Below are positions 4,584-37,329 of a stretch of DNA of 64,000 nt, one piece after another (position 1 is the stretch's first letter; every line of letters starts with the position of its first letter). The position numbers and the translations under genes are program-made. Below the pieces are notes generated by a model. That model was not told the origin of the DNA and ran no database searches. It worked only from the letters and a program-made list of their open reading frames with translations. The DNA is from an uncultured bacterium (GTDB lineage: Bacteria; Zixibacteria; MSB-5A5; CAIYYT01): positions 480,001 through 544,000 of the forward strand of contig CAVSCK010000005.1 in the NCBI GenBank assembly GCA_963726455.1, read 5' to 3'.

Positions 4584-6026
4584 TCAAAGTCTTGATGTAT
4601 CCTGTAGCTGATTTTTTGACGCCACTCGGCGATAGAGTTGGTGGCTCGGTTTGTCGGACGGCGCAACGTAGTCGACCCGCTCGTAGTTGCGCGCGAATTC
4701 AAGTGCGGCGATGATATCCCTCGCGGTCGGATAGTCCGGATCAATGAATATCCAGTCCGCGTTGACTGAATCTGCAAACTCGCGATAACGCCCGGCGCGG
4801 TTGTACGGAATCGCCTGCGGCGTGACCAATCCATCGCGGTCAACAATATTGCCGCGATAATAATGTCCCAGGTAACCGATGTCCTCTGCCAACACGATAT
4901 CTTTCGGCTGTGCATGCAGTGCCAGATATTTCCCCGCCTCCACATGCACATTACGGTATCCGTCCATCTCTGACTTCAAGCCGACGAAACTGGAGGTCAG
5001 GTGGACGAGCGATACTGCGATGACCACGGCAGCGATGGCCACCAAAGATATGTATTCTCGGACAACTGATTTGTGCCACCGCACATATTCAAGCAATCGA
5101 GCGATGCCCATTACAACGCCGAGAAGCACGACGGGATAGACCGGCGCCGGATACCAGAAAAAGACATGTGTGCCGCTCGCGACTAATACCAGCAAGTAGC
5201 CGGCACACCAAAACAGCATTACGGTGAGAAGTCGATCCTTATGGAATGTCGACACCGCGCCGGCAGCAAGTAGCGGCCACAAAATCCATCCGAAAGGCGA
5301 GCCGAGGCCCAATGTCATAACGGCGTTCTGCCACAAGACTGACATTCCTGAGTTCGAGTACAGCGCCATCTTGGCCACGGCCGAATTCGGCACAACTGAT
5401 CCAAAGTAGACGCCCGCGAATAACAACCAACCTCCCGCAATCAGTATCGCCGGAATGGCGCAACGAACTACACGATCTCGGTCGCGTATGAAAACGACCG
5501 TCGCCACCAGCGCCAGCAATGCCCACCCCTCAGGCCGCGCCAGTGTCGTCAGCGATGCCAGGATACTCGCCGATACGTTATGGCGGTTGTGAAGGAAGTA
5601 CATACTCGACGTAAACAACAGCGCTACCAGCGCTGTCTCCATGCCGCAGATATCGCAGATCACCGAGCGCGGGAATACGATGTAGATGATTGCCGGCAGT
5701 ACCGCCAGCTTGCCCAACCCGAGTTTGCACGACCAGCGATAAAGCAATACTGTGGTCAGTCCGGATGCGGCCAAACTCAGCAGGAGTGCAACTGTTTGAC
5801 TGCCGATTCCGACAACGTTGAACGCCGCAAGTACCAGTGTAAACAGAGGCGTTGAAGTCCCCAACACGCGTTCGCCGATGTTGTATACGAATCCGTGGCC
5901 CGCCGCCAGGTTTTCCGCGTATCGAAACGTAATAAACGCGTCATCTACAGTGTATTGCGTCGCAAAATGCACCACCAATCGCACGATAACGGCAGCGCCA
6001 AGAAGAATGTAATCGGCTCTATTCAC
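4584..6026 (-). CDS. Polytopic membrane GT-C glycosyltransferase-like protein
   Basis: 'DDAFITFRYAENLAAGHG..YNIGERVLGTSTPL', 'GMET', 'RPEG', 'DRDGLV' motifs; many TM helices. Confidence 0.8.
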   Translation of the reverse strand: MNRADYILLGAAVIVRLVVHFATQYTVDDAFITFRYAENLAAGHGFVYNIGERVLGTSTPLFTLVLAAFNVVGIGSQTVALLLSLAASGLTTVLLYRWSCKLGLGKLAVLPAIIYIVFPRSVICDICGMETALVALLFTSSMYFLHNRHNVSASILASLTTLARPEGWALLALVATVVFIRDRDRVVRCAIPAILIAGGWLLFAGVYFGSVVPNSAVAKMALYSNSGMSVLWQNAVMTLGLGSPFGWILWPLLAAGAVSTFHKDRLLTVMLFWCAGYLLVLVASGTHVFFWYPAPVYPVVLLGVVMGIARLLEYVRWHKSVVREYISLVAIAAVVIAVSLVHLTSSFVGLKSEMDGYRNVHVEAGKYLALHAQPKDIVLAEDIGYLGHYYRGNIVDRDGLVTPQAIPYNRAGRYREFADSVNADWIFIDPDYPTARDIIAALEFARNYERVDYVAPSDKPSHQLYRRVASKNQLQDTSRL

Positions 6027-6310
6027 GGCTGGCAAGATATGCGATTGTTAGCGCGAACAGCAAACGCATCGTGCCCGTCAGTCGCGGAATTCGGAAGTGA
6101 GAGATTCATGTCATTTGTGCGGCTCACTGTCGCAACTTGAAACAGCGCATCTCAACATCCAAGCCAACTCTTCCGATAAGAGATAAGACAAGGCATCATA
6201 AGGGATATTCGGGTTCTGATCAGCACGACCAGAGGCGAATAATCACTGGTACACGGGGCAAATTTCAGCGACGCTGATAGTACGTCCGATTGCACGAAAG
6301 GGAGTAGCAC

Positions 6311-7450
6311 ATGAAGATCGAGCAGAAAGTCTGGCGGACCGGCATCGGCTGGGAACAAAGTTTAGTCGGAGATTCTGTCCGCGATGCACAACTGGTATTG
6401 TTGTTCGGAGACAGATCAGTCCTGTCGGAATCTCCCGCCTTGGGCGAAGTGAGACGCGACTACCCGAACGCACAGATTATCGGCTGTTCTACTGCCGGTG
6501 AAATCTGCGACACCAACGTCCTCGACGAAACCGTGGTCGCAACTGCCGTGCAGTTCGAACACTCGGAAGTCAGTGGAACCTCCGTCAAGATGGGCGGCGG
6601 CATCAGTAGCCATGACGCCGGCGCTGCTTTGGCTCAGAATCTTGACAAACGCGGACTCCGGCATGTCTTCGTGCTCTCCGATGGAATCAGCGTAAACGGC
6701 AGCGACCTGGTCAAAGGTCTGACCAAAAACCTGCCCGGCGACGTCACTGTCACCGGCGGACTTTCGGCCGACGGCGGTTGTTTCGAACGCACCCTCGTGT
6801 CGTGGAATGATTGCCTTGACTCAGGCACGATCGCCGCGATCGGATTGTATGGAAGTCGGCTACGCGTCGGTTTTGGTTCACAAGGAGGTTGGGACCCCTT
6901 CGGCCCTGAAAGAGTGGTAACCAAGTCCGAGCGCAATGTCTTGCGTGAGTTGGATGGTCAATCTGCCCTCGAACTATACAGAAAATATCTCGGCGAACAT
7001 GCGAAGGGTTTGCCTGCCACCGGCCTGCTCTTTCCGCTGAGCTTAAGAACGGGAGAGCGTGAGGCGGGCGTCGTCCGCACGGTTCTGGCGGTCGACGAAG
7101 GCGCCCAGAGCATGACCTTCGCCGGGGACGTGCCCGAAGGTTCTTATGCGCGTTTGATGAAAGCCAACTTCGATCGCCTGATCGATGGCGCGGAACTCGC
7201 TGCTCAAATATCCGGGAAAGCAATTGCCCCGGCCAGAGCGGAACTGGCGATCCTGATCACGTGCGTCGGCCGCAAGATGGTTCTGCGGCAGAGGGTCGAA
7301 GAGGAAGTTGAGGCGGTAAAGAACGTGCTCGGCAAGCAGACGTTCATGACCGGCTTCTATTCTTACGGCGAGATCTCGCCCTTTGCTCCCGGCGAACCCT
7401 GCGAATTGCATAACCAAACGATGACGATAACGACGCTGGCCGAGGAGTAA
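6311..7450 (+). CDS. FIST-domain (FIST_N + FIST_C) sensory protein
   Basis: 'IIGCSTAGEI', 'GWDPFG', 'CVGRKMVL', 'GFYSYGEI', 'LHNQTMT'. Confidence 0.93.
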   Translation: MKIEQKVWRTGIGWEQSLVGDSVRDAQLVLLFGDRSVLSESPALGEVRRDYPNAQIIGCSTAGEICDTNVLDETVVATAVQFEHSEVSGTSVKMGGGISSHDAGAALAQNLDKRGLRHVFVLSDGISVNGSDLVKGLTKNLPGDVTVTGGLSADGGCFERTLVSWNDCLDSGTIAAIGLYGSRLRVGFGSQGGWDPFGPERVVTKSERNVLRELDGQSALELYRKYLGEHAKGLPATGLLFPLSLRTGEREAGVVRTVLAVDEGAQSMTFAGDVPEGSYARLMKANFDRLIDGAELAAQISGKAIAPARAELAILITCVGRKMVLRQRVEEEVEAVKNVLGKQTFMTGFYSYGEISPFAPGEPCELHNQTMTITTLAEE

Positions 7451-7465
7451 CATCGGATTCACAAT

Positions 7466-9184
7466 ATGCACAGCTTATTGCGTCGGCAATTGATTCGCTT
7501 CTTCGGTTATCCGGAGGCGGTTCCGGAGGAATTGTCCAGTTTCCTCGGGGCTGTCGAAGATGCCTATCAGCAATTTGACGGCGACCGCGCGATGCTGGAA
7601 CGATCTCTGGAATTGAGCTCCAACGAGCTGCTCCAGGCAAACGCCGACATGCGCGCCATCTTCGAAGTGCTGCCCGACCTCTTCTTCCGCATCGACGGTG
7701 AGGGAATCATCCTTGACTGCCGCGCGGGCAAAGCGACCGATATCCTCATTCCTCCCAAAACTCTGATCGGTAAACGAATCCAGGACATTCCCATCGCGGG
7801 CGTCGGCAGAAAATTCTCTGAGGCGATTCAATTGGTGAGTGAGCATCGTGCCATGACCAGTTTCGAGTATGCCCTGGAATCCGACGGCCAACTGCGTCAT
7901 TACGAGTCACGCCTGCTGCCGCTGCAAGAGAGCGAAATCATCACGATCATTCGAGATATTACGGAGAGCAAGCTCGACGAAGAACGCAAGGCCCGCTTGA
8001 CCGCCGCCGTTGAACAAGCAGTTGAGGCCATTATAATTACCGATGCCGAAGGCGTGATCCAGTATGTCAATCCCGCACTTGAGGCCATCACCGGTTATTC
8101 ACGCGATGAAGTAGTCGGCCAAAAGCCGAATCTCTTCCGCAGCGGCCGACACGATACCAAGTTCTATCAGGGTCTATGGGACACCTTGCGCAGAGGCGGA
8201 GTCTGGCAGGGGCGCTTTGTCAACAAGAGAAAGGACGGCTCGCTGGTCGAGTTGGAGGCGTCAATCTCACCCGTTCTGGACGCCGATCGGAGCATTATCA
8301 ACTACGTGGCGCTCGAACGCGATGAAACCGAAATGCTGCAACTGGAGGCCCAACTGCGTCAGGCCCAGAAATTGGAAGCGGTCGGTTCTCTTGCCGCCGG
8401 CATCGCTCACGAAATCAACACTCCCATTCAGTACGTCGGCGACAATGTCCGCTTCATGTCCGAGGCCTTCAATGGTGTCTTGCAGTTGCTGAGCAAGGGC
8501 GTCAGCAGTTGCCCAAAATGCGATCATCCAATACCGTTGCGGATTCTGTGCTCCATAGTTTCTCCCGAAATCGATATTGATTTCTTGAGCGAAGAGGTTC
8601 CGCGCGCCGTCGATGAAACGTTGCAGGGAATTGAGAGAGTGGCAACCATTGTTCGGGCTATGAAGGACTTCTCCCATCCCGATGAACGCGAGAAAGTTCC
8701 GACCGATATCAACAAAGCGCTCCTCACGACGCTTACGGTGGCTCACAACGAGCTGAAATATGTTGCGCATGTAAGAACCGCGCTGGATGAAGAACTGCCG
8801 CTTGTCGCCTGCTGCCCCGGCTCACTCAATCAGGTATTCCTGAATCTACTCGTTAATGCGGCTCATGCCATAGCTGATGTCGTCGGTGAGGGCGCTGCCG
8901 AAAAGGGCTGGATTACCGTAACCACAAAACGCAGCGACAATTATGCTATCATTGAGGTCAATGACACCGGCACCGGCATCAAGAAAGAAATCCGCGACCG
9001 CATCTTTGATTCATTCTTTACGACGAAGGAAGTCGGTAAAGGCACGGGCCAGGGTCTCGCAATTGCCCGCTCCGTCATTGTCGATCAACATGGCGGCTCA
9101 ATCACCTTCGACTCCGAGGAAGGCAAAGGCACCACTTTCCGAGTCACGCTACCACTCATCACCGACACCGTCCCCGTATCCTAG
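7466..9184 (+). CDS. Cytoplasmic PAS-PAS sensor histidine kinase
   Basis: Two PAS domains; H-box 'AAGIAHEINTP'; N, G1, F and G2 boxes; no TM. Confidence 0.93.
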   Translation: MHSLLRRQLIRFFGYPEAVPEELSSFLGAVEDAYQQFDGDRAMLERSLELSSNELLQANADMRAIFEVLPDLFFRIDGEGIILDCRAGKATDILIPPKTLIGKRIQDIPIAGVGRKFSEAIQLVSEHRAMTSFEYALESDGQLRHYESRLLPLQESEIITIIRDITESKLDEERKARLTAAVEQAVEAIIITDAEGVIQYVNPALEAITGYSRDEVVGQKPNLFRSGRHDTKFYQGLWDTLRRGGVWQGRFVNKRKDGSLVELEASISPVLDADRSIINYVALERDETEMLQLEAQLRQAQKLEAVGSLAAGIAHEINTPIQYVGDNVRFMSEAFNGVLQLLSKGVSSCPKCDHPIPLRILCSIVSPEIDIDFLSEEVPRAVDETLQGIERVATIVRAMKDFSHPDEREKVPTDINKALLTTLTVAHNELKYVAHVRTALDEELPLVACCPGSLNQVFLNLLVNAAHAIADVVGEGAAEKGWITVTTKRSDNYAIIEVNDTGTGIKKEIRDRIFDSFFTTKEVGKGTGQGLAIARSVIVDQHGGSITFDSEEGKGTTFRVTLPLITDTVPVS

Positions 9185-9275
9185 CACAAATCACTCAGCG
9201 CGCCAGCGCGCCGCATCCCCATTCAATCCCAAACACTACCTGGCAGGAAACTGTCTCCGCAGGGAGCCAAGTGTC

Positions 9276-9325
9276 GTTGTGCCGGGTCCTGCGCACGACG
9301 AAGTCGGGCGCGTAACCTGCTACGA
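9276..9325. repeat. Dispersed palindromic element (GTCAGGTCCTGCG...CGTGTGACCTGAC family), degenerate copy
   Basis: Near-identical to 14198-14247. Confidence 0.75.
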
Positions 9326-9337
9326 TTGATGGCACTT

Positions 9338-9375
9338 CTCCCCTCGCCCTTTGGGAGAGGGGCAAGGGGTGAGGG
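9338..9375. repeat. GC-rich palindromic intergenic element
   Basis: CTCCCCTCGCCCTTTGGGAGAGGGGCAAGGGGTGAGGG between convergent genes. Confidence 0.6.
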
Positions 9376-9439
9376 AGCGCACCAGCATTCACTTCGATCT
9401 CAAAGCGATACCCTGTGAACCAAATTGCTATCGGAGGAA

Positions 9440-10348
9440 TTACTTCGCCGCCACAACCGCCAGCAACAGCGAATTGTAGCGCACATCGGGAGAGTCAAAT
9501 GAAGAACAAATCACGCACGGCACTTTGCCGCCGACCACGATCAATCCATACTCACTCTTGGTATACATTGCGAACGCTTTGTACACCCCGTAATTGGTGG
9601 CCAGATTCGGCCCAATCAATATCTCTGCTTGTCCCGCGACCGGTCCTGTCGCTCCCTTTTCTTTGGCAGCCGATTCAATCAACGCGACATCCATTGACAG
9701 CGGCCCATCCACGAGGCAACCTTTGATTTGCCCCTTGTCGGCCATCTTGGAGATTACCGCCCCATCGATCGTCACCGGCATCTGCGGGTAAATCACTTCG
9801 ACTGCCGCCAACATCGCCGCCTTGGGTTGCTTGTTCCCCATCTTGTGCGCCAATGCGACCGCGTTATTCAGGATGCTGACCAGATCCATCATCTCAGGCT
9901 CAGGGTTTACGATCGGATCTGAAACATACACCAGCCGGTTCAGATTCTCATTCTTGCAGACCATCACGCCCGATACCAGGTTGGGATGCACTCGATAGCC
10001 GAGCCGCCGTTCGAACAACAACGACAGAAAATCCTGCGTGCCAAAAACGCCCTTGCAAATTCCGCCGACCTTGTTGTCGTGAATCAACTCCAGCGCCGTG
10101 TATACCGAGTGGTTCGCGTCGTTTGATCTGACCAGTTCCCAGCCGCGTATCTCTACACCCGCCTCCTTGGAGGCGTTCATAATCGCCTCTTCTTCGCCGA
10201 TCAATACCGGCTTGACCAGTCGGTTCTTGATCGCCCGATCCAAGCCGATAATCAGCGCCGGATCGTGCGGCTCCACGCAAGCAATCAAAATCGGATCAGT
10301 CGCCCGTTCGCGCGCCAGCTTTTCGATATCGGCAAAATTCGCTGTCAT
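9440..10348 (-). CDS. Phosphate butyryl/acyltransferase paralog 2 (divergent active site)
   Basis: PTA_PTB fold ('AAVEVIYPQMPVTIDG', 'VDGPLSMDVA'); ATGA overlap with upstream paralog gives the start at 10348. Confidence 0.85.
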   Translation of the reverse strand: MTANFADIEKLARERATDPILIACVEPHDPALIIGLDRAIKNRLVKPVLIGEEEAIMNASKEAGVEIRGWELVRSNDANHSVYTALELIHDNKVGGICKGVFGTQDFLSLLFERRLGYRVHPNLVSGVMVCKNENLNRLVYVSDPIVNPEPEMMDLVSILNNAVALAHKMGNKQPKAAMLAAVEVIYPQMPVTIDGAVISKMADKGQIKGCLVDGPLSMDVALIESAAKEKGATGPVAGQAEILIGPNLATNYGVYKAFAMYTKSEYGLIVVGGKVPCVICSSFDSPDVRYNSLLLAVVAAK

Positions 10349-28770: not shown

Positions 28771-28810
28771 AAGGGCAGATTAACACGTGCAATCACCGAG
28801 GAGGTGTAAG

Positions 28811-29263
28811 ATGAATAAACGGTTATATCGGTCGCGGCAGCACAACGTTATTGCCGGTGTCTGTGGCGGACTGGGGGAATACTTCGATGTTGACCCCGTT
28901 TTCGTACGCATCCTGGCGGTGATTCTGGTATTTGCCCATGGAATCGGACTAGTTGCCTACATCGTTGCCTGGATTGCCATGCCGAAATCGCCGCTGGTAA
29001 CGGCATCTGTCGAAACAGTGGCGAGTACGGAAACTCCAGTGGATACCCAACCGCCGGCAGAGCCGTCAGTCTGGGCCAAGTACTGGGTCGGAATCATATT
29101 GATCGGGCTGGGCGTAATCTTTCTGGCCGATCATCTTTTCTGGTGGTTTCACTGGCGTTACGTCTGGCCTATTCTGTTGATCCTCGCCGGTGCAGCGCTG
29201 ATACTAAGATCATCCACGCGTCATAAGAATAACGGAGGCATTCATGAATCCATCCAGAGTTAG
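28811..29263 (+). CDS. PspC-domain protein with LiaI/LiaF-like TM region
   Basis: 'KRLYRS..IAGVCGGLGEYFDVDP..RI'; 'GIILIGLG..WPILLIL'; GAGGAGG RBS. Confidence 0.9.
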   Translation: MNKRLYRSRQHNVIAGVCGGLGEYFDVDPVFVRILAVILVFAHGIGLVAYIVAWIAMPKSPLVTASVETVASTETPVDTQPPAEPSVWAKYWVGIILIGLGVIFLADHLFWWFHWRYVWPILLILAGAALILRSSTRHKNNGGIHESIQS

Positions 29264-30146
29264 ATGGGGCATAACCCTTATTCTCATCGGGCTGGTCTTC
29301 CTGGCCAACAATCTCGGCCAGTTGAGTTGGTGGGTGTGGTACGACCTGTTGCATCTCTGGCCGGTCTTGTTGATAGTGATTGGCCTGGAGGTCATCGTCA
29401 AGAGATCCAAGCTGCAAATTCTCGGCTACCTCTCGTCACTGATCGTGGTCGCGACTTTCGCCTATGTCGTGATCGACAACCGTGGCAATCCCGACGATGA
29501 ATACGGATCCTATCCATCGTCTCGGTCAGAGGTCAGCGTCAGTTACGAAAATCAGGCGACTGCCAATTTCAAAATCAAGTTCGATGACGGCCGGCTCTAT
29601 TTCAACACCAGTGATGACAAACTCTTCCGCGCGGTCGCCGAGAACTCCCGGCGCGATCTGCAGCTGATTCCCGAGTCATCCGGTTCGAGCAGCGACATCA
29701 CGCTTTCTCCCGGCTCGAAACATTTTCGTCGTTGGGTGAACGTCGGCTCGAATGACAATCACTGGAAATGCTACATCCGCCCCGAAGTGGCCGGAAACTA
29801 TAACCTCGATCTCGCCGGTACTGATCTTCGCTTCTTCGGACAGGATTTGAAAGTTGACAGACTGGCAATTCAGGCCGACCGTTCTGACCTGGTCGTGCGG
29901 CTGGGGAAACAACAGGCGCGTTGTGATGTAAACCTGTCGGGCGACAACACTGATCTGGATATCTATTTCCCCGACTCAGCCGGCGTGCGAATCGAAGGCA
30001 CTTATCCTTCACAGACTGATATTGACGCTTTCAAATTGACCGATCGCGGCGGCTATCTCAGCAACGACTTATACGACCGCGCCGCCGTGAATTTCACGGT
30101 CAAGACCGAATTGAAGCAAGGCAAAGTGAGGGTGAGCAGCTACTAA
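29244..30146 (+). CDS. DUF5668/LiaF-like membrane protein with extracytoplasmic beta domain
   Basis: 'WGITLILIGLVFLANNLG..LWPVLLIVIG'; overlaps pspC gene. Confidence 0.8.
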   Translation: MNPSRVRWGITLILIGLVFLANNLGQLSWWVWYDLLHLWPVLLIVIGLEVIVKRSKLQILGYLSSLIVVATFAYVVIDNRGNPDDEYGSYPSSRSEVSVSYENQATANFKIKFDDGRLYFNTSDDKLFRAVAENSRRDLQLIPESSGSSSDITLSPGSKHFRRWVNVGSNDNHWKCYIRPEVAGNYNLDLAGTDLRFFGQDLKVDRLAIQADRSDLVVRLGKQQARCDVNLSGDNTDLDIYFPDSAGVRIEGTYPSQTDIDAFKLTDRGGYLSNDLYDRAAVNFTVKTELKQGKVRVSSY

Positions 30147-30188: not shown

Positions 30189-31016
30189 TTAGCAACCGTC
30201 GCAGGGTGAGGCGCCCTCGCTGAAGATGTAACTCACGAGAAAGATCACGTCTGCAACGTCGGTTCCTCCGTCACAATTGACATCACCATTGCTACTATCC
30301 TGCGGGGCAGGTCCCGTCCCGAATATGTAATTGACCAGATAGACGGCATCAGCGATGTTGATGCTCTGCGAACCATTTACATCGCCACAGACCGCGGCAA
30401 GAGTAACGCCGGAGCACTCCGGGAAGCGGGGACGAAAGGTATAATTTTCCCAAGGGCTTTGGTAGAGACTCGAAAAGAGCCCGACCGGGTGGTTCCTCAC
30501 CGTCCAAATAGGTTCAATCGTAACTGTCTGCGGGACCAAATCCTGCAATTTGAGATAGAGGTATCCCACGAGGCGAGCAACACTTCCGAAAGTCGGCGGA
30601 ATTGAGTTGAAGCCCGCAAAGTCTACCCAGCCGACTTGGATCGAATCCCCAGATTCACTTGTCCAGGTATTCACAAAGGGTCGACTTCCGGGTGGGATTG
30701 GGCTATCAGGAGCAATCATCCACCGTGCGCCGAATCTAACTCCTGTGCCGTTCTCAGCCAAACCGACTGCAAAGCCGCCCAACTCGTAATCATTCCAAAT
30801 GTAGAACGGTATTGCGATCGAATCACCTGCCTGCATGGTATCGAGTGAGATCGTCATGGTACACCCGATCCTGAAAGTGTCGCAGACGCCTAGGTCCAGC
30901 CTTTTAATATTACCGACCGAGTCGTAATCCACATAACACGTATCCTGGGCGTTCGTGGCTGATGTCAGAAGCAAGCAACACGCAAACATGAACCACAAAG
31001 CCAATATCCGATTCAT
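30189..31016 (-). CDS. Secreted cohesin-like + dockerin protein
   Basis: Signal peptide; 'AGDSIAIPFYIWNDYELGGF'; C-terminal 'CGDVNGSQSINIAD..GDVNCDGGTDVAD..YIFSEGASPC'. Confidence 0.85.
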   Translation of the reverse strand: MNRILALWFMFACCLLLTSATNAQDTCYVDYDSVGNIKRLDLGVCDTFRIGCTMTISLDTMQAGDSIAIPFYIWNDYELGGFAVGLAENGTGVRFGARWMIAPDSPIPPGSRPFVNTWTSESGDSIQVGWVDFAGFNSIPPTFGSVARLVGYLYLKLQDLVPQTVTIEPIWTVRNHPVGLFSSLYQSPWENYTFRPRFPECSGVTLAAVCGDVNGSQSINIADAVYLVNYIFGTGPAPQDSSNGDVNCDGGTDVADVIFLVSYIFSEGASPCDGC

Positions 31017-31229: not shown

Positions 31230-31416
31230 GGGATAGGAGCACGTTGGGTCGGTTGCGAAACTGAACCGCGGCCGAAACCCGCTTCCCGTTGCCAATCCCG
31301 AACGATCGTCTCCAACTCAACCAGGAGGAGGAGGAGCCGATGTTCCACACCGACGAACCTCGCACCGAGTACCCAAGCCGGTGGCTCGAAACCTCATAAT
31401 TCGAGCCACTTTTTTT
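31230..31416 (+). ncRNA. Candidate ~185-nt rod-shaped ncRNA (6S-like), containing a 19-codon sORF
   Basis: Own promoter and terminator; 5'/3' pairing GTCGGT/ACCGAC, GAAC/GTTC, CGGC/GCCG, GTTG/CAAC, GGG/CCC. Confidence 0.5.
31381..31416 (+). terminator. Intrinsic terminator
   Basis: GTGGCTCGAA..TTCGAGCCAC-TTTTTTT. Confidence 0.88.
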
Positions 31417-31607
31417 GTGCCCACGAAGCATCCCAATATCTTGCTCAGACCGAATGTCGGGTTTCTCTTCCCGTGGATTCGGAGAGGCGTGTCGAATGAG
31501 GGAAGCGAATGTTGGTGACGGCATTCGTGTGCGGCTGATACGGGACTCGGAACGCCGACCTACGGGACTACACGCCAAGCTTTTGTGAATCAGCAATGAG
31601 GGAAAAT

Positions 31608-32621
31608 CTATTTGAGCAGAATAAATAGCACCGCCGCGAGGGCAACAATCAGAATCGCAATCCACAACAGCGGGCTGATGTCGTGCTTCTTCCTGACTGG
31701 CACGGTGAATCCGACCGTGCTGCCGGCCGGTTGAGGCGGCGCCTCGGTTGTATCCGGGAACTTGCTGTGCGCGATTTGCTCGATCTGCGCTAGTTCCTTG
31801 TCGGTGCCCCAGTCGACGGTGGCGCGCCTGATCTCGTCGAAGTCCGGAATCTCTCCCTGCTCGATGACCCTGGCTATACAGACTGTGATATTATCAGAAC
31901 CACCGGCCTCATTGGCCTTGGCAATCAAAACCTGCGCCAGTTGATTAAGATCATCCGCGCCGGCATTGGCAGCTTTGAGAATCTCGGAGTCGGAGATCAT
32001 TCCGCATAAACCGTCGGAGCAAAGCAGGAACAGATCGTCCTTCTGGAATCGAATTTGCGAGATGTCGGTCTTGATCGTCGGCCTGGTTCCCAGGGCGCGG
32101 GTGATCACATTGCGATTGACGAGATTCTCCGATTCTTCCTCGGTCAAATGATGTTTTTCCATCACCTCGCTGACCCAGGAATGATCGATTGTCACGCGCC
32201 GGATATTGCCCTGGCGAATCAGATACGCCCGGCTGTCGCCGACATGGCAGATCGACACCACTCCGTTTTGAAAATGGCATGCCACCACCGTCGTGCCCAT
32301 CCCCGAACGCTCGGTTGACTCTTTCGCCACTTCGATAATGCGATGGTTGGCGACGGCAATCGCGCCGACCAGCAGTTTGCCCTCGGGTGAAATCTCCTCC
32401 GGATAAGGAAGGCCGTCAACCGCAAAGAGCTGCAGGTCCTGATCCTTAAAGATCGCCGAAATGGTTTCGACCGCCATCTCGGAGGCGACCTCGCCGGCCG
32501 CATGGCCGCCCATGCCGTCGCAGACCATGATCAGGTTTACTTCAGGGATTACCGCGTACGCGTCTTCGTTATGATCGCGTACCTTGCCGACGTCGCTGGC
32601 GCCGGCGTAAATAATTTGCAT
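31608..32621 (-). CDS. PP2C/PPM Ser/Thr phosphatase, tail-anchored
   Basis: 'RDHNED', 'CDGMGGH', 'VGDSR', 'CSDGL', 'DNIT'; C-terminal TM. Confidence 0.94.
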   Translation of the reverse strand: MQIIYAGASDVGKVRDHNEDAYAVIPEVNLIMVCDGMGGHAAGEVASEMAVETISAIFKDQDLQLFAVDGLPYPEEISPEGKLLVGAIAVANHRIIEVAKESTERSGMGTTVVACHFQNGVVSICHVGDSRAYLIRQGNIRRVTIDHSWVSEVMEKHHLTEEESENLVNRNVITRALGTRPTIKTDISQIRFQKDDLFLLCSDGLCGMISDSEILKAANAGADDLNQLAQVLIAKANEAGGSDNITVCIARVIEQGEIPDFDEIRRATVDWGTDKELAQIEQIAHSKFPDTTEAPPQPAGSTVGFTVPVRKKHDISPLLWIAILIVALAAVLFILLK

Positions 32622-32630
32622 CGGTTTTCG

Positions 32631-33704
32631 TTACCTCATCAGCAGGATCAGCACAACAATAAGTGCAACAATTACGGCCGCAAGAATCATTATCCATTTC
32701 GGATTGATCGGACTGGAGGTTCCCATCGGCGCGAAATTTTCCTGTCCGCGGAAACAAAGCCGCATAAAGACTTCGCCCGAGGGCGCGGGTATCGAGATGA
32801 TATCCTCCGGGGCGATGAACTCCCGCTGTCCCGGTTCAATGATCTTGCGATTAACGAATGTACGCAGCTGACTGCGTTTGTCGGTCAGATACAGTCCCTC
32901 ATCGGTAGAGGTAATGACGCAATGCTCGCGCGAGATTGCCGATTCGGGTTGCCCCTGTTCGTCGTGGTCAAGCACCAGGTCGCAAAGTCCGCGTTCGCGG
33001 CCGATCAAGTACTCCTGGGTGTCGATCTCAAAGGCACGTCCCTTGTGCTGACCGCTTAGAACGCACAGTGTATAGACTGAACTGATCTTCTGTTTCTTCG
33101 GCTGCCGCGGAGGCTCCTGTTTCGGTGGTGGTGAAGGTGGATTGGGACGGACTGGACCGGCGTCGCGATGTTCCACCGGCGGCGGCGCCATTCTCTCCTG
33201 CTGTGCCTGTGCCGCCATTTCTTGCGAATTAATAATGACCGTTGCGCGCTCGCCTCTCCTGGCTGCCGGCTTCGGTGGTTCGGGAGCAGGGACAGGCGCC
33301 GGCGGTTGGGGTGTCGGCTCGACAACCGGTATTGCCGTCGCGGTAACTTGAACTGTGGGTTTCGGCGGTTCCGCCACGACCTGTACCGGCTCAACTGCCG
33401 CTACCGACGGTTGGATCTGATAGGTCACGACCATCATGTAATCGAGAAATCCGACCTTGTCGCCTTCCTTCAATATCACGCGATCGCCCGCGACAGCGCC
33501 GTTGATCGTGAACGACATATCGCGCACGCGCGATTCGATTTCATAGCCGGACGGCTGCTTGGCGATAAAGAACAGATCGCCTTCGATTCCGGGAGTCTCC
33601 AATTGCAGGTCAACCGTGCCGCCCGAGCCGATGCGGGCGATGTTGCCGTCGAATTCGAAGACCTTAAGATTCACGCCATTCCTGAGAACAATGAACTTTG
33701 CCAT
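32631..33704 (-). CDS. FHA-domain protein (degenerate FHA, Pro-rich linker, FHA, TM)
   Basis: 'YLIGR...ISREH' FHA motifs; C-terminal hydrophobic anchor. Confidence 0.85.
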   Translation of the reverse strand: MAKFIVLRNGVNLKVFEFDGNIARIGSGGTVDLQLETPGIEGDLFFIAKQPSGYEIESRVRDMSFTINGAVAGDRVILKEGDKVGFLDYMMVVTYQIQPSVAAVEPVQVVAEPPKPTVQVTATAIPVVEPTPQPPAPVPAPEPPKPAARRGERATVIINSQEMAAQAQQERMAPPPVEHRDAGPVRPNPPSPPPKQEPPRQPKKQKISSVYTLCVLSGQHKGRAFEIDTQEYLIGRERGLCDLVLDHDEQGQPESAISREHCVITSTDEGLYLTDKRSQLRTFVNRKIIEPGQREFIAPEDIISIPAPSGEVFMRLCFRGQENFAPMGTSSPINPKWIMILAAVIVALIVVLILLMR

Positions 33705-36130
33705 TATTTCTTCTTTATTTTCAGCGTCACCACATACGTCTGGCCGCTTTTGACTTCCTGTTTCTGGTCGTCCGATTTGTAATCGGGATGGTTCGAGATG
33801 AATTTGTATTTGCCCGGATTAAGATTGAGTGTGAGCATGCCGTCCTTGTCGGACTTGCCCAGGTCGACGTTCTGTTTCTGTTTCTGATTGGCCGGTTGGA
33901 ACTCGGCCGTAATCGCTACGCCGCCAACCGCTACTTGCTTGTTGTCGATCACTACGATCTTGACCTGCCCTTTGCCTGCAGAGGATTCCACCACTGCCGG
34001 CTTTTCCTCTTTCTTCTCCTTCTTGGCGACAGGGCGCATCATCACGACGAATGAATTCAACGATGCCGAGATCGAAGTATCAACATCCGAATATCCATCC
34101 GCGCTCACACTGACACGGCAGACGACACCGGGCAGACGAACTTCCGTTGGAGTGTTCTGGCCTATCGAACTCGATTTCCCCTCGTAACTGACTGTCTTCA
34201 CTCTGCCGTTTACCGAACTTCCCGTAGCCACATCCTGCGCGGAAATCGCGACATTGCGGAAAAGCAGCGTTCGGTAGATCGGCTTGCGTGTCGCAATCGC
34301 CGGTATCTCCAGCGATGCATCGTCGAACCCCGCCTTGCGCAGGGTCAGCATGGTCGCCGCATCCCCAAAATCGGATTTCATCGGGGTCGTTCCGATCTCG
34401 GTTGCAGAACCGGCAATTATCACTGTTGCGCCTTCCGGCACGGTCACTACTTGCGTCTTTGGTTTTTCCGAAAACGATCCACTGATCTGGATGACATTTC
34501 CCGACAATTGGGCAACTTCATAGCCGGTGGCCGAGAAACTCGAAATATCGGCAAGGTTTATCGTGCCGGAACTCAGCACCGGTTTGCTTTGGATTTCGAG
34601 TGTCACCTGCAGAGTATCAGTTGGTGAGGCGGCGAACCGATATGGTGTAGTTTCCGATATCTCCTTGCCGTTGACCGTAATCTTGGCGCCTACCGGTGTT
34701 GAATTGATTTCGACCAGTGCCTTAAGATGAATGGGCGCTTTCTCGAACTGCTCGAAATTGACCGCCAATTGTGTATCCGGGCAGCATTTGCTCTTCAGGG
34801 TCAGCTTGCCACCTTCCTTGGCAGAGAATGTCAGCGGAGTCACTCCCAAAAGCGAATCGCCGGCATAAACTTCGGCGCCTTCGGGAACCGTCGCCAGTTT
34901 GCCGGTCTTCATTTCCGACGCCGTGGTGCTGATCGCCGAGCCACCGCTCTTTTGTGTCACCTTCTTGATAGTAATGGCCACCACCGCGACGAAGAGAAAC
35001 ATCGCGACGATACTTAGCACCAACACCGTTCTGCTGCCGCCGAAGCCCCCGCGCTTGGCGCGTTTCAGGCGTTCACCGTAAGGTGTTTTGGAGATGCGCG
35101 TTTCCTGACCGGGACGATCCCTGCGCCCGCCTTGGGAATCGGATGGCGTTTGATCACTCATCGATTTAGTTCCTTCTTCTAATTCAGCCCGGGTGAATGC
35201 CCGGGTTCGCACGATCTGCCGTTCCTTTTCGGAATACGACTGCAATTTAGGCACGGCAGCGAATTTATCAACAACTTCTCTAATTGTTTTATCGGGCGCC
35301 GAAAGACGATCGCGCAGCAGCCGGTCGATTCTTTCGGCAAATTCCGCCGCCGAGTCAATCCGCTGCTCCTTACGTAGTTTCAGGCAACCGTCCAATAGCG
35401 CAATCGTTTCTTTACTGACGCGCGGTCCCAGAGGCGACAAATCATAAGTTCCGCGCACGATCTCGGCCATCAACTCCGACACATTGTGCTGCGGAAACAG
35501 CCGCTCGCCGGTTATCAGTTCATAGGCAACCACACCCAGACTGAATAGATCGGAGTGTTGGTCTACCGGCGTGCCCTGTATCAGTTCGGGCGCCAGGTAA
35601 GCCACGCGGTCCGCCGTCCGGATTTCCCCGGACGTCGGCAGAACGAAATCCACGACGCGTACGTTGCCTGATTCGGTCAGATGAATCGTTTCCGGATTCA
35701 GCCCCAGATGATACAGGCGCAAGGCCCTGCCGGAAACATGGTCGCGCAATCCGTGCGTGGAAGCCAACAGATGTGCCACCTGGCTGATGACATAAAGCGA
35801 CAACTCCGGCGGGAAATCAATTTCCTGAAAATGCCGCAGCAGTCGACCGAGACTGACCGATCTGGGTGCGTCCGTCAGGACAAAGATGGAATTGTCTTCG
35901 CCGCGACGATGGGACACGAACTGCTCGGCGTTGGGATGATTCAATTCCGCCAGGGCAAACGTGGCTGCCAGGTATTGTTTGACATCGAGACTATCCGACC
36001 AGGCGTGTCGCGAAATCTCCCGCACCTGCACGTTTCGCGCCAATTCCAGATCGCGGGCGATGTGAACCGCGCTCCACTTGGTTTCGTGGAGAATCCCCTG
36101 GAATTCGAACCGTTCATCGAGTACGCGCAT
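33704..36130 (-). CDS. Hanks-type Ser/Thr pseudokinase, TM, extracytoplasmic PEGA repeats
   Basis: Kinase fold ('HPN', 'YLAPE', 'SDLFSLG', 'YELITG') with catalytic motifs lost; PEGA 'TVPEGAEV..LGVTP', 'STPVGAKI'. Confidence 0.88.
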   Translation of the reverse strand: MRVLDERFEFQGILHETKWSAVHIARDLELARNVQVREISRHAWSDSLDVKQYLAATFALAELNHPNAEQFVSHRRGEDNSIFVLTDAPRSVSLGRLLRHFQEIDFPPELSLYVISQVAHLLASTHGLRDHVSGRALRLYHLGLNPETIHLTESGNVRVVDFVLPTSGEIRTADRVAYLAPELIQGTPVDQHSDLFSLGVVAYELITGERLFPQHNVSELMAEIVRGTYDLSPLGPRVSKETIALLDGCLKLRKEQRIDSAAEFAERIDRLLRDRLSAPDKTIREVVDKFAAVPKLQSYSEKERQIVRTRAFTRAELEEGTKSMSDQTPSDSQGGRRDRPGQETRISKTPYGERLKRAKRGGFGGSRTVLVLSIVAMFLFVAVVAITIKKVTQKSGGSAISTTASEMKTGKLATVPEGAEVYAGDSLLGVTPLTFSAKEGGKLTLKSKCCPDTQLAVNFEQFEKAPIHLKALVEINSTPVGAKITVNGKEISETTPYRFAASPTDTLQVTLEIQSKPVLSSGTINLADISSFSATGYEVAQLSGNVIQISGSFSEKPKTQVVTVPEGATVIIAGSATEIGTTPMKSDFGDAATMLTLRKAGFDDASLEIPAIATRKPIYRTLLFRNVAISAQDVATGSSVNGRVKTVSYEGKSSSIGQNTPTEVRLPGVVCRVSVSADGYSDVDTSISASLNSFVVMMRPVAKKEKKEEKPAVVESSAGKGQVKIVVIDNKQVAVGGVAITAEFQPANQKQKQNVDLGKSDKDGMLTLNLNPGKYKFISNHPDYKSDDQKQEVKSGQTYVVTLKIKKK

Positions 36131-36351
36131 GTCTTCTATATTCCCCTGCTCATACTACGCCGCCATCCGGCTTCGCGGAATCCTCATGATCTTCAATCCG
36201 TTATTATATTAACGGATTCCCGTAGGATTTCTGCAATAATACGTTGCCGGGGAAAATAGTCAATCTTCAACACAAGTGGGGGTGTCCTGGCAAAAGAACG
36301 GGCGCAGCCATTGCAGCCGCGCCCACATATGTTGAAATGCTATGCGTGAAT

Positions 36352-37329
36352 CTACATGCCGTAACAGTGCGGAGCGGGTCCGCCGGCGAATATGTATTGA
36401 ATCAAATACACGACATCGGATATGTCATACGCTTGGTCACCGTTTGCGTCACCGTACCCGCCTTGATAGTTGCAGTCACTACTCCCCGGAGCTCCGTCGC
36501 ATCTCGCAACGATGCATTGAAGCGCGAAGACGGCATCAGAGATGTCAAAGGTGCCATCCATGTTCGCGTCGCCGCACGCGGTGCAACACTGATTGTGAGT
36601 CAAAACCGGAGTGTAATACGGCTTCTGATTGGTCACCAAGACGGTGCTGCCGAACGGAGCTACGTAAGAAGTGTCGTAGTCGATCAATTGTGACGGATCG
36701 CCGTTGAGGATGCGCACATTCAGTTTACAGAGCAGAGCATTGCTGAATACAGGAGGGTTAAGTCCGTCCAAAACCGCCACGAGTACTACCTGATTTGTTT
36801 CAGGATAGAATTCAGGCCATAGACTCATGACAGCGACCTGAGATCCCGCCGTGCTCACCGATGTCACTTCCACGTTATCATTCAGGTAGCCCAAGACAAT
36901 ATTCAGCCCCACAACGCCTGGAATCGTCGTTATTCGAATGGGTACTGCAATGGAATCGTTACCCGGATATCTTTCAATAGGCCAGCAATCGATTCTGATT
37001 TCTCCGCCGGTCTCGGTTGGGCAAGCAATGGGGTTTCCGCATTCAAACGGCGGGCCTGTCCAGTAACGGACGTACCGACTAAACAGAATTAAGTCCGGGG
37101 CAGCAACACCGCCACAGCCATCGATCTCTCCGCAAGTGTCGATGACAGTGCCTCCGCCAAAGAAATATTGAATGTAAAAAACTCCGTCCGTAATATCAAT
37201 TGCGCCATCATGGTCTGCATCTCCGCAACTTGCGCAAGCGGCCTTTGATTGAGCGAACGCTGTTCCGGTGACTACCAGTGAAAAAATCAGCCCCAAGGCC
37301 AACGTCAGCAACAGTACTCTGCCATTCAT
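36352..37329 (-). CDS. Secreted dockerin-cohesin-like-dockerin protein
   Basis: Signal peptide; N-terminal 'CGDADHDGAIDITD'; central 'NDSIAVPIRI..VEVTSVS'; C-terminal 'CGDANMDGTFDISD..GGPAPHC'. Confidence 0.85.
   Translation of the reverse strand: MNGRVLLLTLALGLIFSLVVTGTAFAQSKAACASCGDADHDGAIDITDGVFYIQYFFGGGTVIDTCGEIDGCGGVAAPDLILFSRYVRYWTGPPFECGNPIACPTETGGEIRIDCWPIERYPGNDSIAVPIRITTIPGVVGLNIVLGYLNDNVEVTSVSTAGSQVAVMSLWPEFYPETNQVVLVAVLDGLNPPVFSNALLCKLNVRILNGDPSQLIDYDTSYVAPFGSTVLVTNQKPYYTPVLTHNQCCTACGDANMDGTFDISDAVFALQCIVARCDGAPGSSDCNYQGGYGDANGDQAYDISDVVYLIQYIFAGGPAPHCYGM

Follow-up and report, generated by a model that had tools for sequence, protein, structure and literature searches.

Why should a receptor of the kinase type be kept in an operon with a phosphopeptide reader and a phosphatase after it has lost the residues needed for phosphotransfer? 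The question is raised by a locus in a 64,000-nucleotide stretch of DNA from an uncultured bacterium of the Zixibacteria (GenBank assembly GCA_963726455.1, contig CAVSCK010000005.1, positions 480,001 to 544,000 of the forward strand), referred to here as the window. Three minus-strand genes encode an 808-residue receptor pseudokinase with a dead kinase domain, a juxtamembrane tail, a transmembrane (TM) segment and a PEGA/CarboxypepD_reg-like ectodomain (33704..36130); a tail-anchored FHA adaptor of 357 residues, recognized by its open reading frame (ORF) and domain match (32631..33704); and a PP2C phosphatase of 337 residues and of the Stp1/IreP/PstP type (31608..32621). The kinase domain is predicted to be folded but inactive, is under strong purifying selection, and appears to descend from an active receptor kinase of the same operon.

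The pseudokinase domain (residues 1-290; 35261..36130, minus strand) matched Pkinase (PF00069) over residues 32-259 with 64.5 bits, the cut-off being 31.7. Motifs were called from an HMMER residue alignment of the receptor with PknB of M. tuberculosis. In this alignment the Gly-loop of PknB (GFGGMS) corresponds to HETKWS (receptor 15-20, HETKW being 15-19), VAVK to VQVR, with R37 in place of the β3 Lys, and the αC Glu to A56. HRDVKPAN is replaced by HLGLNPET (141-148), from which the HRD Asp and the catalytic Asn are gone, and DFG by DFV (161-163). APE (180-182) is retained, and SDxxSLG is represented by SDLFSLG (193-199). The alignment agrees with the sequence-only reading of this locus, which had called the Gly-loop, the VAIK Lys, HRDxKxxN and DFG lost and APE and SDLFSLG kept. 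The signatures of an active Ser/Thr kinase are thus missing at the β3 Lys/αC Glu pair, HRDxKxxN, GxGxxG and DFG. An AlphaFold2 model of receptor residues 1-364, built from an 18-row alignment, had a predicted local distance difference test score (pLDDT) of 84.5 and a predicted template-modelling score (pTM) of 0.81; the low-confidence parts were residues 165-168 (the shortened activation loop) and 324-364 (the tail before the TM segment). The best Foldseek matches of the model in the PDB were PknB kinase domains, with a target-normalized score (TMt) of up to 0.83 at about 25% identity. The profile match above its cut-off and the bilobal kinase model both place the domain in the Hanks-type fold. 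Judged from sequence and predicted structure, the receptor kinase domain is folded but catalytically dead.

The catalytic losses are shared by the relatives. A word-indexed search returned 25 clusters with the architecture of the receptor, at 42-67% identity, and their source names, where given, were of Zixibacteria only. A regular-expression tally found HRD in 0/25. The loop of the HLGLNP type was present in 22 clusters, and the other three, one 5'-partial protein and two kinase-less proteins, do not have the region. None of the 22 full-length orthologs has Lys at the β3 position, where R, V, I, L or T is found; by alignment, the Gly-loop is lost across them, and the position of the DFG Asp varies between D, N, G and E. 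Throughout the dead-kinase family the position of the HRD Asp is taken by Gly, Cys, Ser or Ala, and compared with live PEGA kinases the activation loop lacks 9 residues. Among full-length genome copies from the family of the window, the window's included, the β3 Lys, the HRD Asp and the Gly-loop were each found in 0/11.

An exhaustive search of 1.84 billion representatives gave only 12 matches at E<=1e-30, five of which are the dead-kinase family. This family comprises the five 50%-identity clusters P0006, P0015, P0109, P0110 and P0111, all without the β3 Lys, the αC Glu and the HRD Asp. Classification of the matches from this search covered the top 2+51+1; most of the other classified matches were live HRDxSPxN or HRDxKPxN kinases, and a few had degenerate catalytic loops (for example P0114, P0151 and P0154).

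The ratio of non-synonymous to synonymous substitution (dN/dS; Nei-Gojobori) in the pseudokinase domain was 0.068 (dS 0.60) and 0.053 (dS 0.36) for two unsaturated pairs, and was similar in the ectodomain (0.016 and 0.054). The pseudokinase domain is therefore under strong purifying selection. The receptor frame is intact over 808 codons, and matching catalytic substitutions were found in other, independent assemblies, the most divergent at 36% identity. Recent decay, a pseudogene or a sequencing error was ruled out because HRD is found in none of the 25 clusters, the same changes recur in independent assemblies, the frame is intact and dN/dS is 0.05-0.07; nothing was found in favour of such an origin. 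That the degenerate motifs belong to the relatives and not to a single gene, on which the sequence-only reading depended, is borne out by the cluster and genome counts (0/25 and 0/11) and by the selection. Loss of at least one residue of the catalytic triad, kept across a family under selection, is also what defines a pseudokinase in the available portion of 10.1101/2025.01.12.632604.

The origin of the dead receptor was traced in 150 genomes of the phylum. Twenty loci were taken with 6-kb flanks, and all their ORFs were compared with the three window proteins by phmmer. A receptor ortholog, full-length or partial, was present in 12/12 sampled genomes of the window's family; in other families its occurrence was patchy (f4 3/3, f6 5/5, f18 2/2, f15 2/2, f5 2/11, f2 0/55). 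The synteny expected from the initial reading was recovered, with receptor, FHA and PP2C genes in the same order and strand in 17/20 loci, namely 12/12 of the window's family, two of f18 and three of f4. Of the remaining loci, L050 has receptor and PP2C without an FHA match, L051 is cut by a contig end, and L057 holds an unrelated kinase. The latter (genome G037), a kinase of the ordinary HRDVKPAN kind, has neither the insert described below nor FHA and PP2C genes beside it, and was left out of the counts of live, dead and absent kinase domains.

Live, dead and kinase-less forms of the receptor share its ectodomain. The syntenic genes of f4, f18 and f5 (L051-L056) are intact kinases with GGFG, VAIKE, the αC Glu, HRD(I/V)SPSN, DFG and a long activation loop, and their Pfam kinase scores were 146-154 bits, against 64.5 for the window protein. 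An insert, RDRxTGxPL, lies just before the catalytic loop in both live syntenic and dead forms and is not found in the other kinases of the genome. Since distant orthologs from the same operon are intact, the loss was an ancient conversion, and the sequence relationships indicate that the dead receptor derives from an active receptor kinase of the same kinase-FHA-PP2C operon. L050 (genome G070, family f15; 5995-9857, plus strand) encodes a second degenerate kinase, with AESTTED, VLVRE (a β3 Arg), HLDVCPAN and no DFG, scoring 80 bits. Its gene is directly followed by that of a 441-residue PP2C with a TM segment and an extra C-terminal domain of about 120 residues, which is found also in the f18 phosphatases. 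Genus g3, though a member of the window's own family, has a receptor that lacks the kinase domain entirely and starts at the juxtamembrane tail (M-N-A-N-S-S-D-D...GQETRIG; L048 and L049), and FHA and PP2C genes still follow. Family f6 (four loci) and genome G020 have kinase-less receptors with TM segment and PEGA domain beside PP2C, the FHA gene being present only in G020.

In an IQ-TREE tree of the ectodomain (25 rows), the window's family formed a 100/100 clade in which g3 was sister to the dead-kinase genera (84/84), and one live, one dead and one kinase-less form grouped in another clade (100/99). Going by the topology of this tree, which has long branches and was midpoint-rooted, catalysis was lost independently at least twice, and the kinase domain at least three times.

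What was kept on the cytoplasmic side is best seen in the juxtamembrane region (residues 291-364; 35039..35260, minus strand), of which residues 324-364 are predicted to be disordered. Several tail motifs are confined to the dead-kinase family: VRTRA (T309), EEGT (T321), an invariant Met324, PGQETRIS (T344) and ERLKRAKRGG. The most conserved cytoplasmic feature of the receptor is the PG-x-E-T-x-I motif around T344. GQETRI was found in 25/25 database clusters, kinase-less ones included, and is kept in g3, whose gene lost the whole kinase domain; in divergent members of 36% identity the motif reads RPGEETVI. In the window receptor QETRIS (342-347; 35090..35107) lies within a segment of AlphaFold2 pLDDT below 50, and is a candidate phospho-acceptor and FHA-docking site.

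The Met324 codon (35159-35161, minus strand) is invariant and aligns with the start codon of the kinase-less g3 genes (L048, L049). Nine nucleotides before this ATG, the codons GAR-GAA-GGR occur in 11/11 full-length genes and read as a Shine-Dalgarno-like GAAGGR, and dS in the juxtamembrane region was 0.09-0.8 as against 0.3 to >3 elsewhere in the receptor gene. Counting against an internal start, the segment has only 79 codons, is rich in two-fold-degenerate residues and shows many synonymous differences between sub-clades. Cluster P0023 starts at the equivalent of Met324, on a 2.6-kb contig that may be cut at the 5' end. Met324 may be an internal start from which every species of the family makes an isoform without the kinase domain, or the pattern may be only a composition effect.

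In the FHA adaptor, FHA (PF00498) matched residues 232-305 with 53.4 bits. The canonical domain (residues 212-320; 32745..33071, minus strand) carries IGRE (234) and SREH (258), and G235, R236, S258, R259, H261, D275, S278 and N285 are invariant in 18/18 adaptor sequences from dead, live and kinase-less operons. The sequence-only reading had the adaptor keep GR and SxxH and lack NG, and this was found in the whole set. The position of NG is LR in the window and MR or LG in live-kinase operons; its loss is clade-wide, and so is not tied to the death of the kinase. The domain is therefore an FHA domain by its profile, Gly-Arg and Ser-x-x-His, NG excepted.

The adaptor profile matched the FHA domain of GarA with both halves of the protein. 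In the C-terminal half GR and SRxH were aligned and the SlNGt of GarA stood opposite SxLRT (S-Q-L-R-T in the window); in the N-terminal half G-S occupies the GR position and the Ser/His pair is missing. When the C-terminal FHA domain alone was compared with PDB sequences by phmmer, no match was obtained at E<=0.001, although the adaptor profile did match GarA. No Pfam match was found in the N-terminal region. The sequence-only reading had not included a fold there; a model of residues 1-100 had a pLDDT of 91.1 and superposed on the FHA domains of Ki67, GarA and FhaA with a TM-score of up to 0.84 (Ki67), PDB 3oun (the FhaA FHA-Rv3910 complex) being among the matches. This predicted second fold (residues 1-97; 33414..33704) is a degenerate FHA domain without the GR and SxxH residues that bind phosphothreonine (pThr). 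Between the folds, a Pro-rich linker holds the conserved motif G-E/D-R-x-T-x-I-I-D/N-S, with Ile at +3, which in the window is ERATVIINS (residues 152-160; 33225..33251) and gives a candidate phospho-site of the TxxI type at T155. Sequence and model together give the adaptor, from N- to C-terminus, an FHA fold blind to pThr, a linker rich in Pro, a canonical FHA domain and a TM anchor. The T344 and T155 motifs look as one would expect of linear motifs that accept phosphate and dock FHA domains, and are candidates for that role. The g3 adaptors are longer (439 and 407 residues; L048:4652-5968 and L049:4313-5533, both minus strand), and their linkers carry extra copies, KETRIIS and KETQIIS, that resemble the GQETRIS of the receptor.

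The third protein is an apparently complete phosphatase. The protein, whose catalytic domain spans residues 1-255 (31857-32621, minus strand), scored 256.2 bits with NF033484 (Stp1/IreP), for which the curated cut-off is 230, and aligned end-to-end with PstP 2cm1 (E 3.6e-34), which assigns it to the Stp1/IreP/PstP type. It has HNED, DGMGG, GDS, SDG and GxDN, all of them invariant in 16/16 aligned orthologs, as are the metal-binding D20, D35, D129, D203 and D243, so that the earlier statement that all metal motifs are kept holds beyond the window. The C-terminal TM segment is found in the window's genus and in g2, whereas g3 and f4 lack it, so that not all of these phosphatases are anchored in the membrane. 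This PP2C was the only match to PF13672 and PF00481 in the 3.64-Mb genome, where the other eight proteins of the PP2C fold are of the SpoIIE/RsbU type. A single PF13672 match, always the operon copy, was found in 6/6 genomes: that of the window and others with a live (G004, G130), dead (G018) or absent (G015, G017) kinase domain. The same six genomes had 10-21 Pkinase matches each. The genome of the window had 17 in about 15 frames, of which 12 others scored 130-195 bits; the operon copy was the second-lowest (67.6 bits in the genome scan) and the lowest that spans the domain. With so many intact kinases elsewhere in the genome, kinases able to act in trans are plentiful.

Further phosphosignalling genes were seen in the same scans. 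An intact kinase (L003) has two FHA matches about 2.5 kb upstream of it, at C4:1413685-1414275, and a 548-residue frame at G000:C5:169172-170743 (plus strand) with matches to FHA and SpoIIE-type PP2C looks like an FHA-phosphatase fusion. Kinase L006 (G000, C5:43202-43948), otherwise intact, has HLD for HRD; it is non-RD and keeps the catalytic Asp, unlike the HLG of the operon receptor.

From these data we propose, with a probability of about 0.5, that the receptor is a non-catalytic scaffold that would be phosphorylated in trans, read by the FHA adaptor and reset by the PP2C, by analogy with MviN. In this scheme a PEGA-type ectodomain is linked through one TM helix to a disordered tail with the invariant T344 motif and to the folded dead Hanks domain. 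Phosphotransfer would have been lost in the window's Zixibacteria family and the protein kept as a membrane platform. One of the approximately 14 intact Ser/Thr kinases elsewhere in the genome would phosphorylate T344, and probably T155 too; the canonical C-terminal FHA domain of the adaptor would dock on the phospho-Thr, and the co-transcribed, membrane-anchored PP2C would remove the phosphate and reset the complex. The invariant pThr-binding residues of the FHA domain, the intact PP2C and the conserved, disordered Thr motif are consistent with such a mechanism. The precedent for a pseudokinase-FHA pairing that the sequence-only reading had invoked, MviN-FhaA, is found in the available sections of PMC12599244, where the tail of the MviN pseudokinase is phosphorylated by PknB and recruits the FHA domain of FhaA.

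Several findings weigh against this scaffold. In f6 and L050 the module has no FHA gene, so that an FHA read-out is not universal, and the kinase domain is dispensable in g3, f6 and G020; no single model explains why the dead domain is so strongly selected where it is kept and yet cleanly deleted in g3. Many FHA domains prefer I or L at +3. In the T344-R-I-S motif S, R, A or G stands at +3, and T-V-I-I of the adaptor fits the preference better; the FHA domain also lacks the NG Asn, which is the usual contact with the peptide backbone. Finally, the PP2C may be conserved for a genome-wide role: as it is the sole phosphatase of the Stp1 type in the genome, its conservation alone does not prove that it acts on the receptor. 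A complex prediction of receptor 1-364 with adaptor 1-330 (18-row alignments each, no controls) scored 0.00 and carries no weight either way.

The most constant pairing across the class is that of the receptor ectodomain with PP2C, not that of pseudokinase with FHA, and the main alternative, a tentative one, is that the receptor controls the phosphatase. The ectodomain, TM segment and tail would then localize or gate the sole Stp1-type PP2C on the substrates of other kinases, with the kinase domain and FHA protein as accessory modulators. In all informative loci the PP2C gene lies next to the receptor gene, be the kinase domain live, dead or absent (18/20 loci, plus 5/5 further kinase-less loci). 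The lack of the FHA gene in f6 and L050, the single PF13672 match in 6/6 genomes and the loss of the kinase domain at least three times on a tree along which ectodomain dN/dS stays at 0.016-0.054 point the same way. The g3 and f4 phosphatases have no TM anchor, and hence no obvious direct membrane coupling to the receptor; purifying selection on the dead domain and the invariant pThr residues of the adaptor would also be left unexplained. The extended version, a split "receptor phosphatase" whose kinase repeatedly went from live to dead to deleted and whose output would be ligand-gated global Ser/Thr dephosphorylation via PG-x-E-T-x-I and the tandem-FHA adaptor, is rather doubtful.

Selection on the whole domain would fit an allosteric partner. 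In this reading the dead domain would pair back-to-back through its N-lobe, as in PknB and MviN, with a receptor kinase that is active, and would switch that kinase on or off in the manner of eukaryotic pseudokinase-kinase pairs. Receptor R7 and L30 are conserved and align with R10 and L33 of PknB, which we take to be dimer-interface residues; L33D and D76A mutants are named in PDB titles. According to the available sections of PMC12599244, the MviN pseudokinase forms such an N-lobe dimer. R7 and L30 are however conserved in live relatives too and so do not mark out the dead form. None of the 12 family loci has a gene for a partner kinase close by, and the domain is dispensable in g3; these points make a partner of this kind improbable. 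An atypical enzyme is very improbable, whether it were to transfer phosphate with relocated residues in the manner of WNK or to catalyse some other nucleotide-dependent reaction like SelO or SidJ. The Gly-loop does contain a Lys (K18), a β3 Arg is present in the window's genus and in divergent members, and the window protein and P0109/P0110 retain the DFG Asp; the β3 residue is nevertheless V, I, L or T in most orthologs, the HRD Asp is replaced throughout, the DFG Asp varies between D, N, G and E, and around the active site there is no polar residue that the whole family shares. K18 as a relocated Lys of the WNK kind was rejected, the orthologs having H, A, P or S there.

The non-catalytic scaffold has its closest likeness in MviN (Rv3910, ActPs3) of M. 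tuberculosis, also a membrane protein with an intracellular pseudokinase of the Hanks fold in which all three catalytic motifs are degraded and the activation loop is shortened. The deletion in this loop is of 9 residues here and of about 40 in ActPs3, which was compared by its description. ActPs3 is an actinobacterial family, further marked by aromatic residues of its own that fill the ATP pocket. In both proteins the tail that follows the pseudokinase domain has a Thr, which in MviN is phosphorylated in trans and read by FHA (PMC12599244, available sections) and here is a candidate only. Unlike MviN, in which the pseudokinase is fused to a lipid II flippase, the present receptor has it at the N-terminus, followed by one TM segment and a PEGA ectodomain, and the FHA partner and a PP2C are encoded in the same operon and membrane-anchored. 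The nearest live relatives are HRDxSPxN kinases of the same Zixibacteria operon, which argues for an origin independent of MviN/ActPs3.

The gene content resembles the PknB-PstP-FhaA/FhaB, Stk1-Stp1 and PrkC-PrpC modules, where a gene of the receptor-kinase type stands with the main PP2C and FHA; the PP2C is of the Stp1 type, and PknB is the nearest match in kinase fold. Those modules require an active kinase, whereas the cognate kinase here is dead or absent. The sensor is PEGA here and PASTA in modules of the PknB-PstP type, and the adaptor differs from theirs in its tandem of degenerate and canonical FHA domains with a C-terminal TM segment. The adaptor is like GarA/OdhI in having, ahead of an FHA domain, a flexible stretch that contains a conserved Thr motif. 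In GarA, kinases phosphorylate this motif, and the protein's own FHA domain can bind it. Unlike GarA/OdhI, the adaptor has two FHA folds with the Thr motif between them and a membrane anchor, and no metabolic-enzyme targets are implied. YukC/EssB of type VIIb secretion is likewise a bacterial membrane pseudokinase scaffold in a system containing FHA (PMC9600267; 10.1101/2020.05.09.085852, both in excerpt); as described there, it is part of a secretion machine, has no PP2C pairing and is highly divergent in fold, unlike the clear PF00069 match of the present receptor. No secretion genes were seen near the operon.

Seven bacterial pseudokinase families are named in the available sections of PMC12599244 and 10.1101/2025.01.12.632604: ActPs1, ActPs2, ActPs3, GLW, CP1, DYD and DLHK. 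As far as these sections describe them, the window receptor and its relatives are like them in loss of the VAIK Lys, the HRD Asp and, in most members, the DFG Asp, and like ActPs2 in that some have a β3 Arg. They differ from GLW, which has GLW for HRD and poly-Leu/Trp for the β3 Lys (PMC12599244, same sections) where HLG and VQVR are found here, and from CP1 and DLHK, which have no TM regions. In the available text of the two sources, the supplementary tables of the latter aside, the words "PEGA" and "Zixibacter" do not occur and no family is described with an HLGLNP loop. A full-text search for literature on Zixibacteria and pseudokinases found none. No PEGA-linked pseudokinase appeared in titles or abstract openings of the literature on PEGA domains and kinases, and no dead-kinase operon of this kind among the best-ranked matches for pseudokinase, FHA and PP2C; a live operon of Ser/Thr protein kinase, FHA and PP2C is known in Deinococcus from the part of the literature so covered.

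To our knowledge, only MviN has a worked-out scaffold mechanism among bacterial pseudokinases. These proteins are described as largely unexplored experimentally in the available sections of PMC12599244. The present case is a tight pseudokinase family from a candidate phylum, none such having been found described, with a presumptive reader (FHA) and eraser (PP2C) in the same operon. Live same-operon orthologs, lineages with the kinase deleted and a PP2C that is the sole Stp1-type phosphatase were added to the picture here, and the relatives form a natural allelic series: a live kinase, two different dead forms and no kinase domain, the ectodomain, the short Thr motif and the phosphatase being retained after catalysis was lost. 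It is a testable case in which the cognate kinase of a sole Stp-type phosphatase died and 10-20 other kinases remain. If the scaffold is real, MviN-type signalling arose independently outside Actinobacteria; if the receptor instead controls the phosphatase, the reading of kinase-phosphatase operons changes.

The arrangement of the three genes is tight, as had been stated when the window was first read, and the coordinates were confirmed. The stop codon of the receptor gene and the start codon of the adaptor gene overlap by 1 nt (TAATG), and the adaptor and PP2C genes are joined as TAA, 9 nt, ATG. Upstream, a terminator-like hairpin (36298..36326, minus strand; 13-bp stem with 8 GC, T-tail) ends the preceding dockerin gene and marks the upstream boundary of the operon, and a sigma-70-like promoter match, TTGACT-16-TATTAT (36236..36263, minus strand; a consensus match only), lies about 100 nt upstream of the receptor ATG. 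Because of the 1-nt overlap, the 9-nt gap, the hairpin and the promoter match, the three genes look like one transcription unit. No public sequencing run, of RNA or otherwise, was listed for 31400-36400.

Each of the three proteins has a single strongly hydrophobic segment, with 19-residue Kyte-Doolittle means of 3.0-3.55, in line with the membrane anchoring first proposed. The segments span residues 362-393 of the receptor, 331-357 of the adaptor and 312-337 of the PP2C, the last two being tail anchors. The TM segment of the receptor was placed at about residues 365-390 (34961..35038, minus strand; maximum 3.02), that of the adaptor at 32637..32705 (minus strand; maximum 3.55) and that of the PP2C at residues 316-336 (31614-31676). 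The extracytoplasmic domain of the receptor (residues 391-808; 33707..34960, minus strand) has PEGA repeats, with matches to PF08308 in two stretches (57.3 bits, cut-off 20.8), and a C-terminal CarboxypepD_reg-like β-sandwich. A Cys-Cys-Pro-Asp motif (CCPD, residues 449-452) in the first PEGA region is present in 24/25 database orthologs and in P0110, and not in the live relative P0026.

On the other strand, some 1.5 kb downstream of the operon, an overlapping pair of genes (28787-29263 and 29244-30146, both plus strand) encodes proteins of an envelope-stress type, one with a PspC domain and a LiaF-like TM region and the other with a LiaI/LiaF-like TM region; the pair is not kept beside the operon in relatives. 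The genes on either side of the operon (30189-31016 and 36352-37329, both minus strand) encode secreted proteins with a C-terminal type I dockerin, and dockerin proteins of a similar kind are found within a few kb of the operon in L047-L049.

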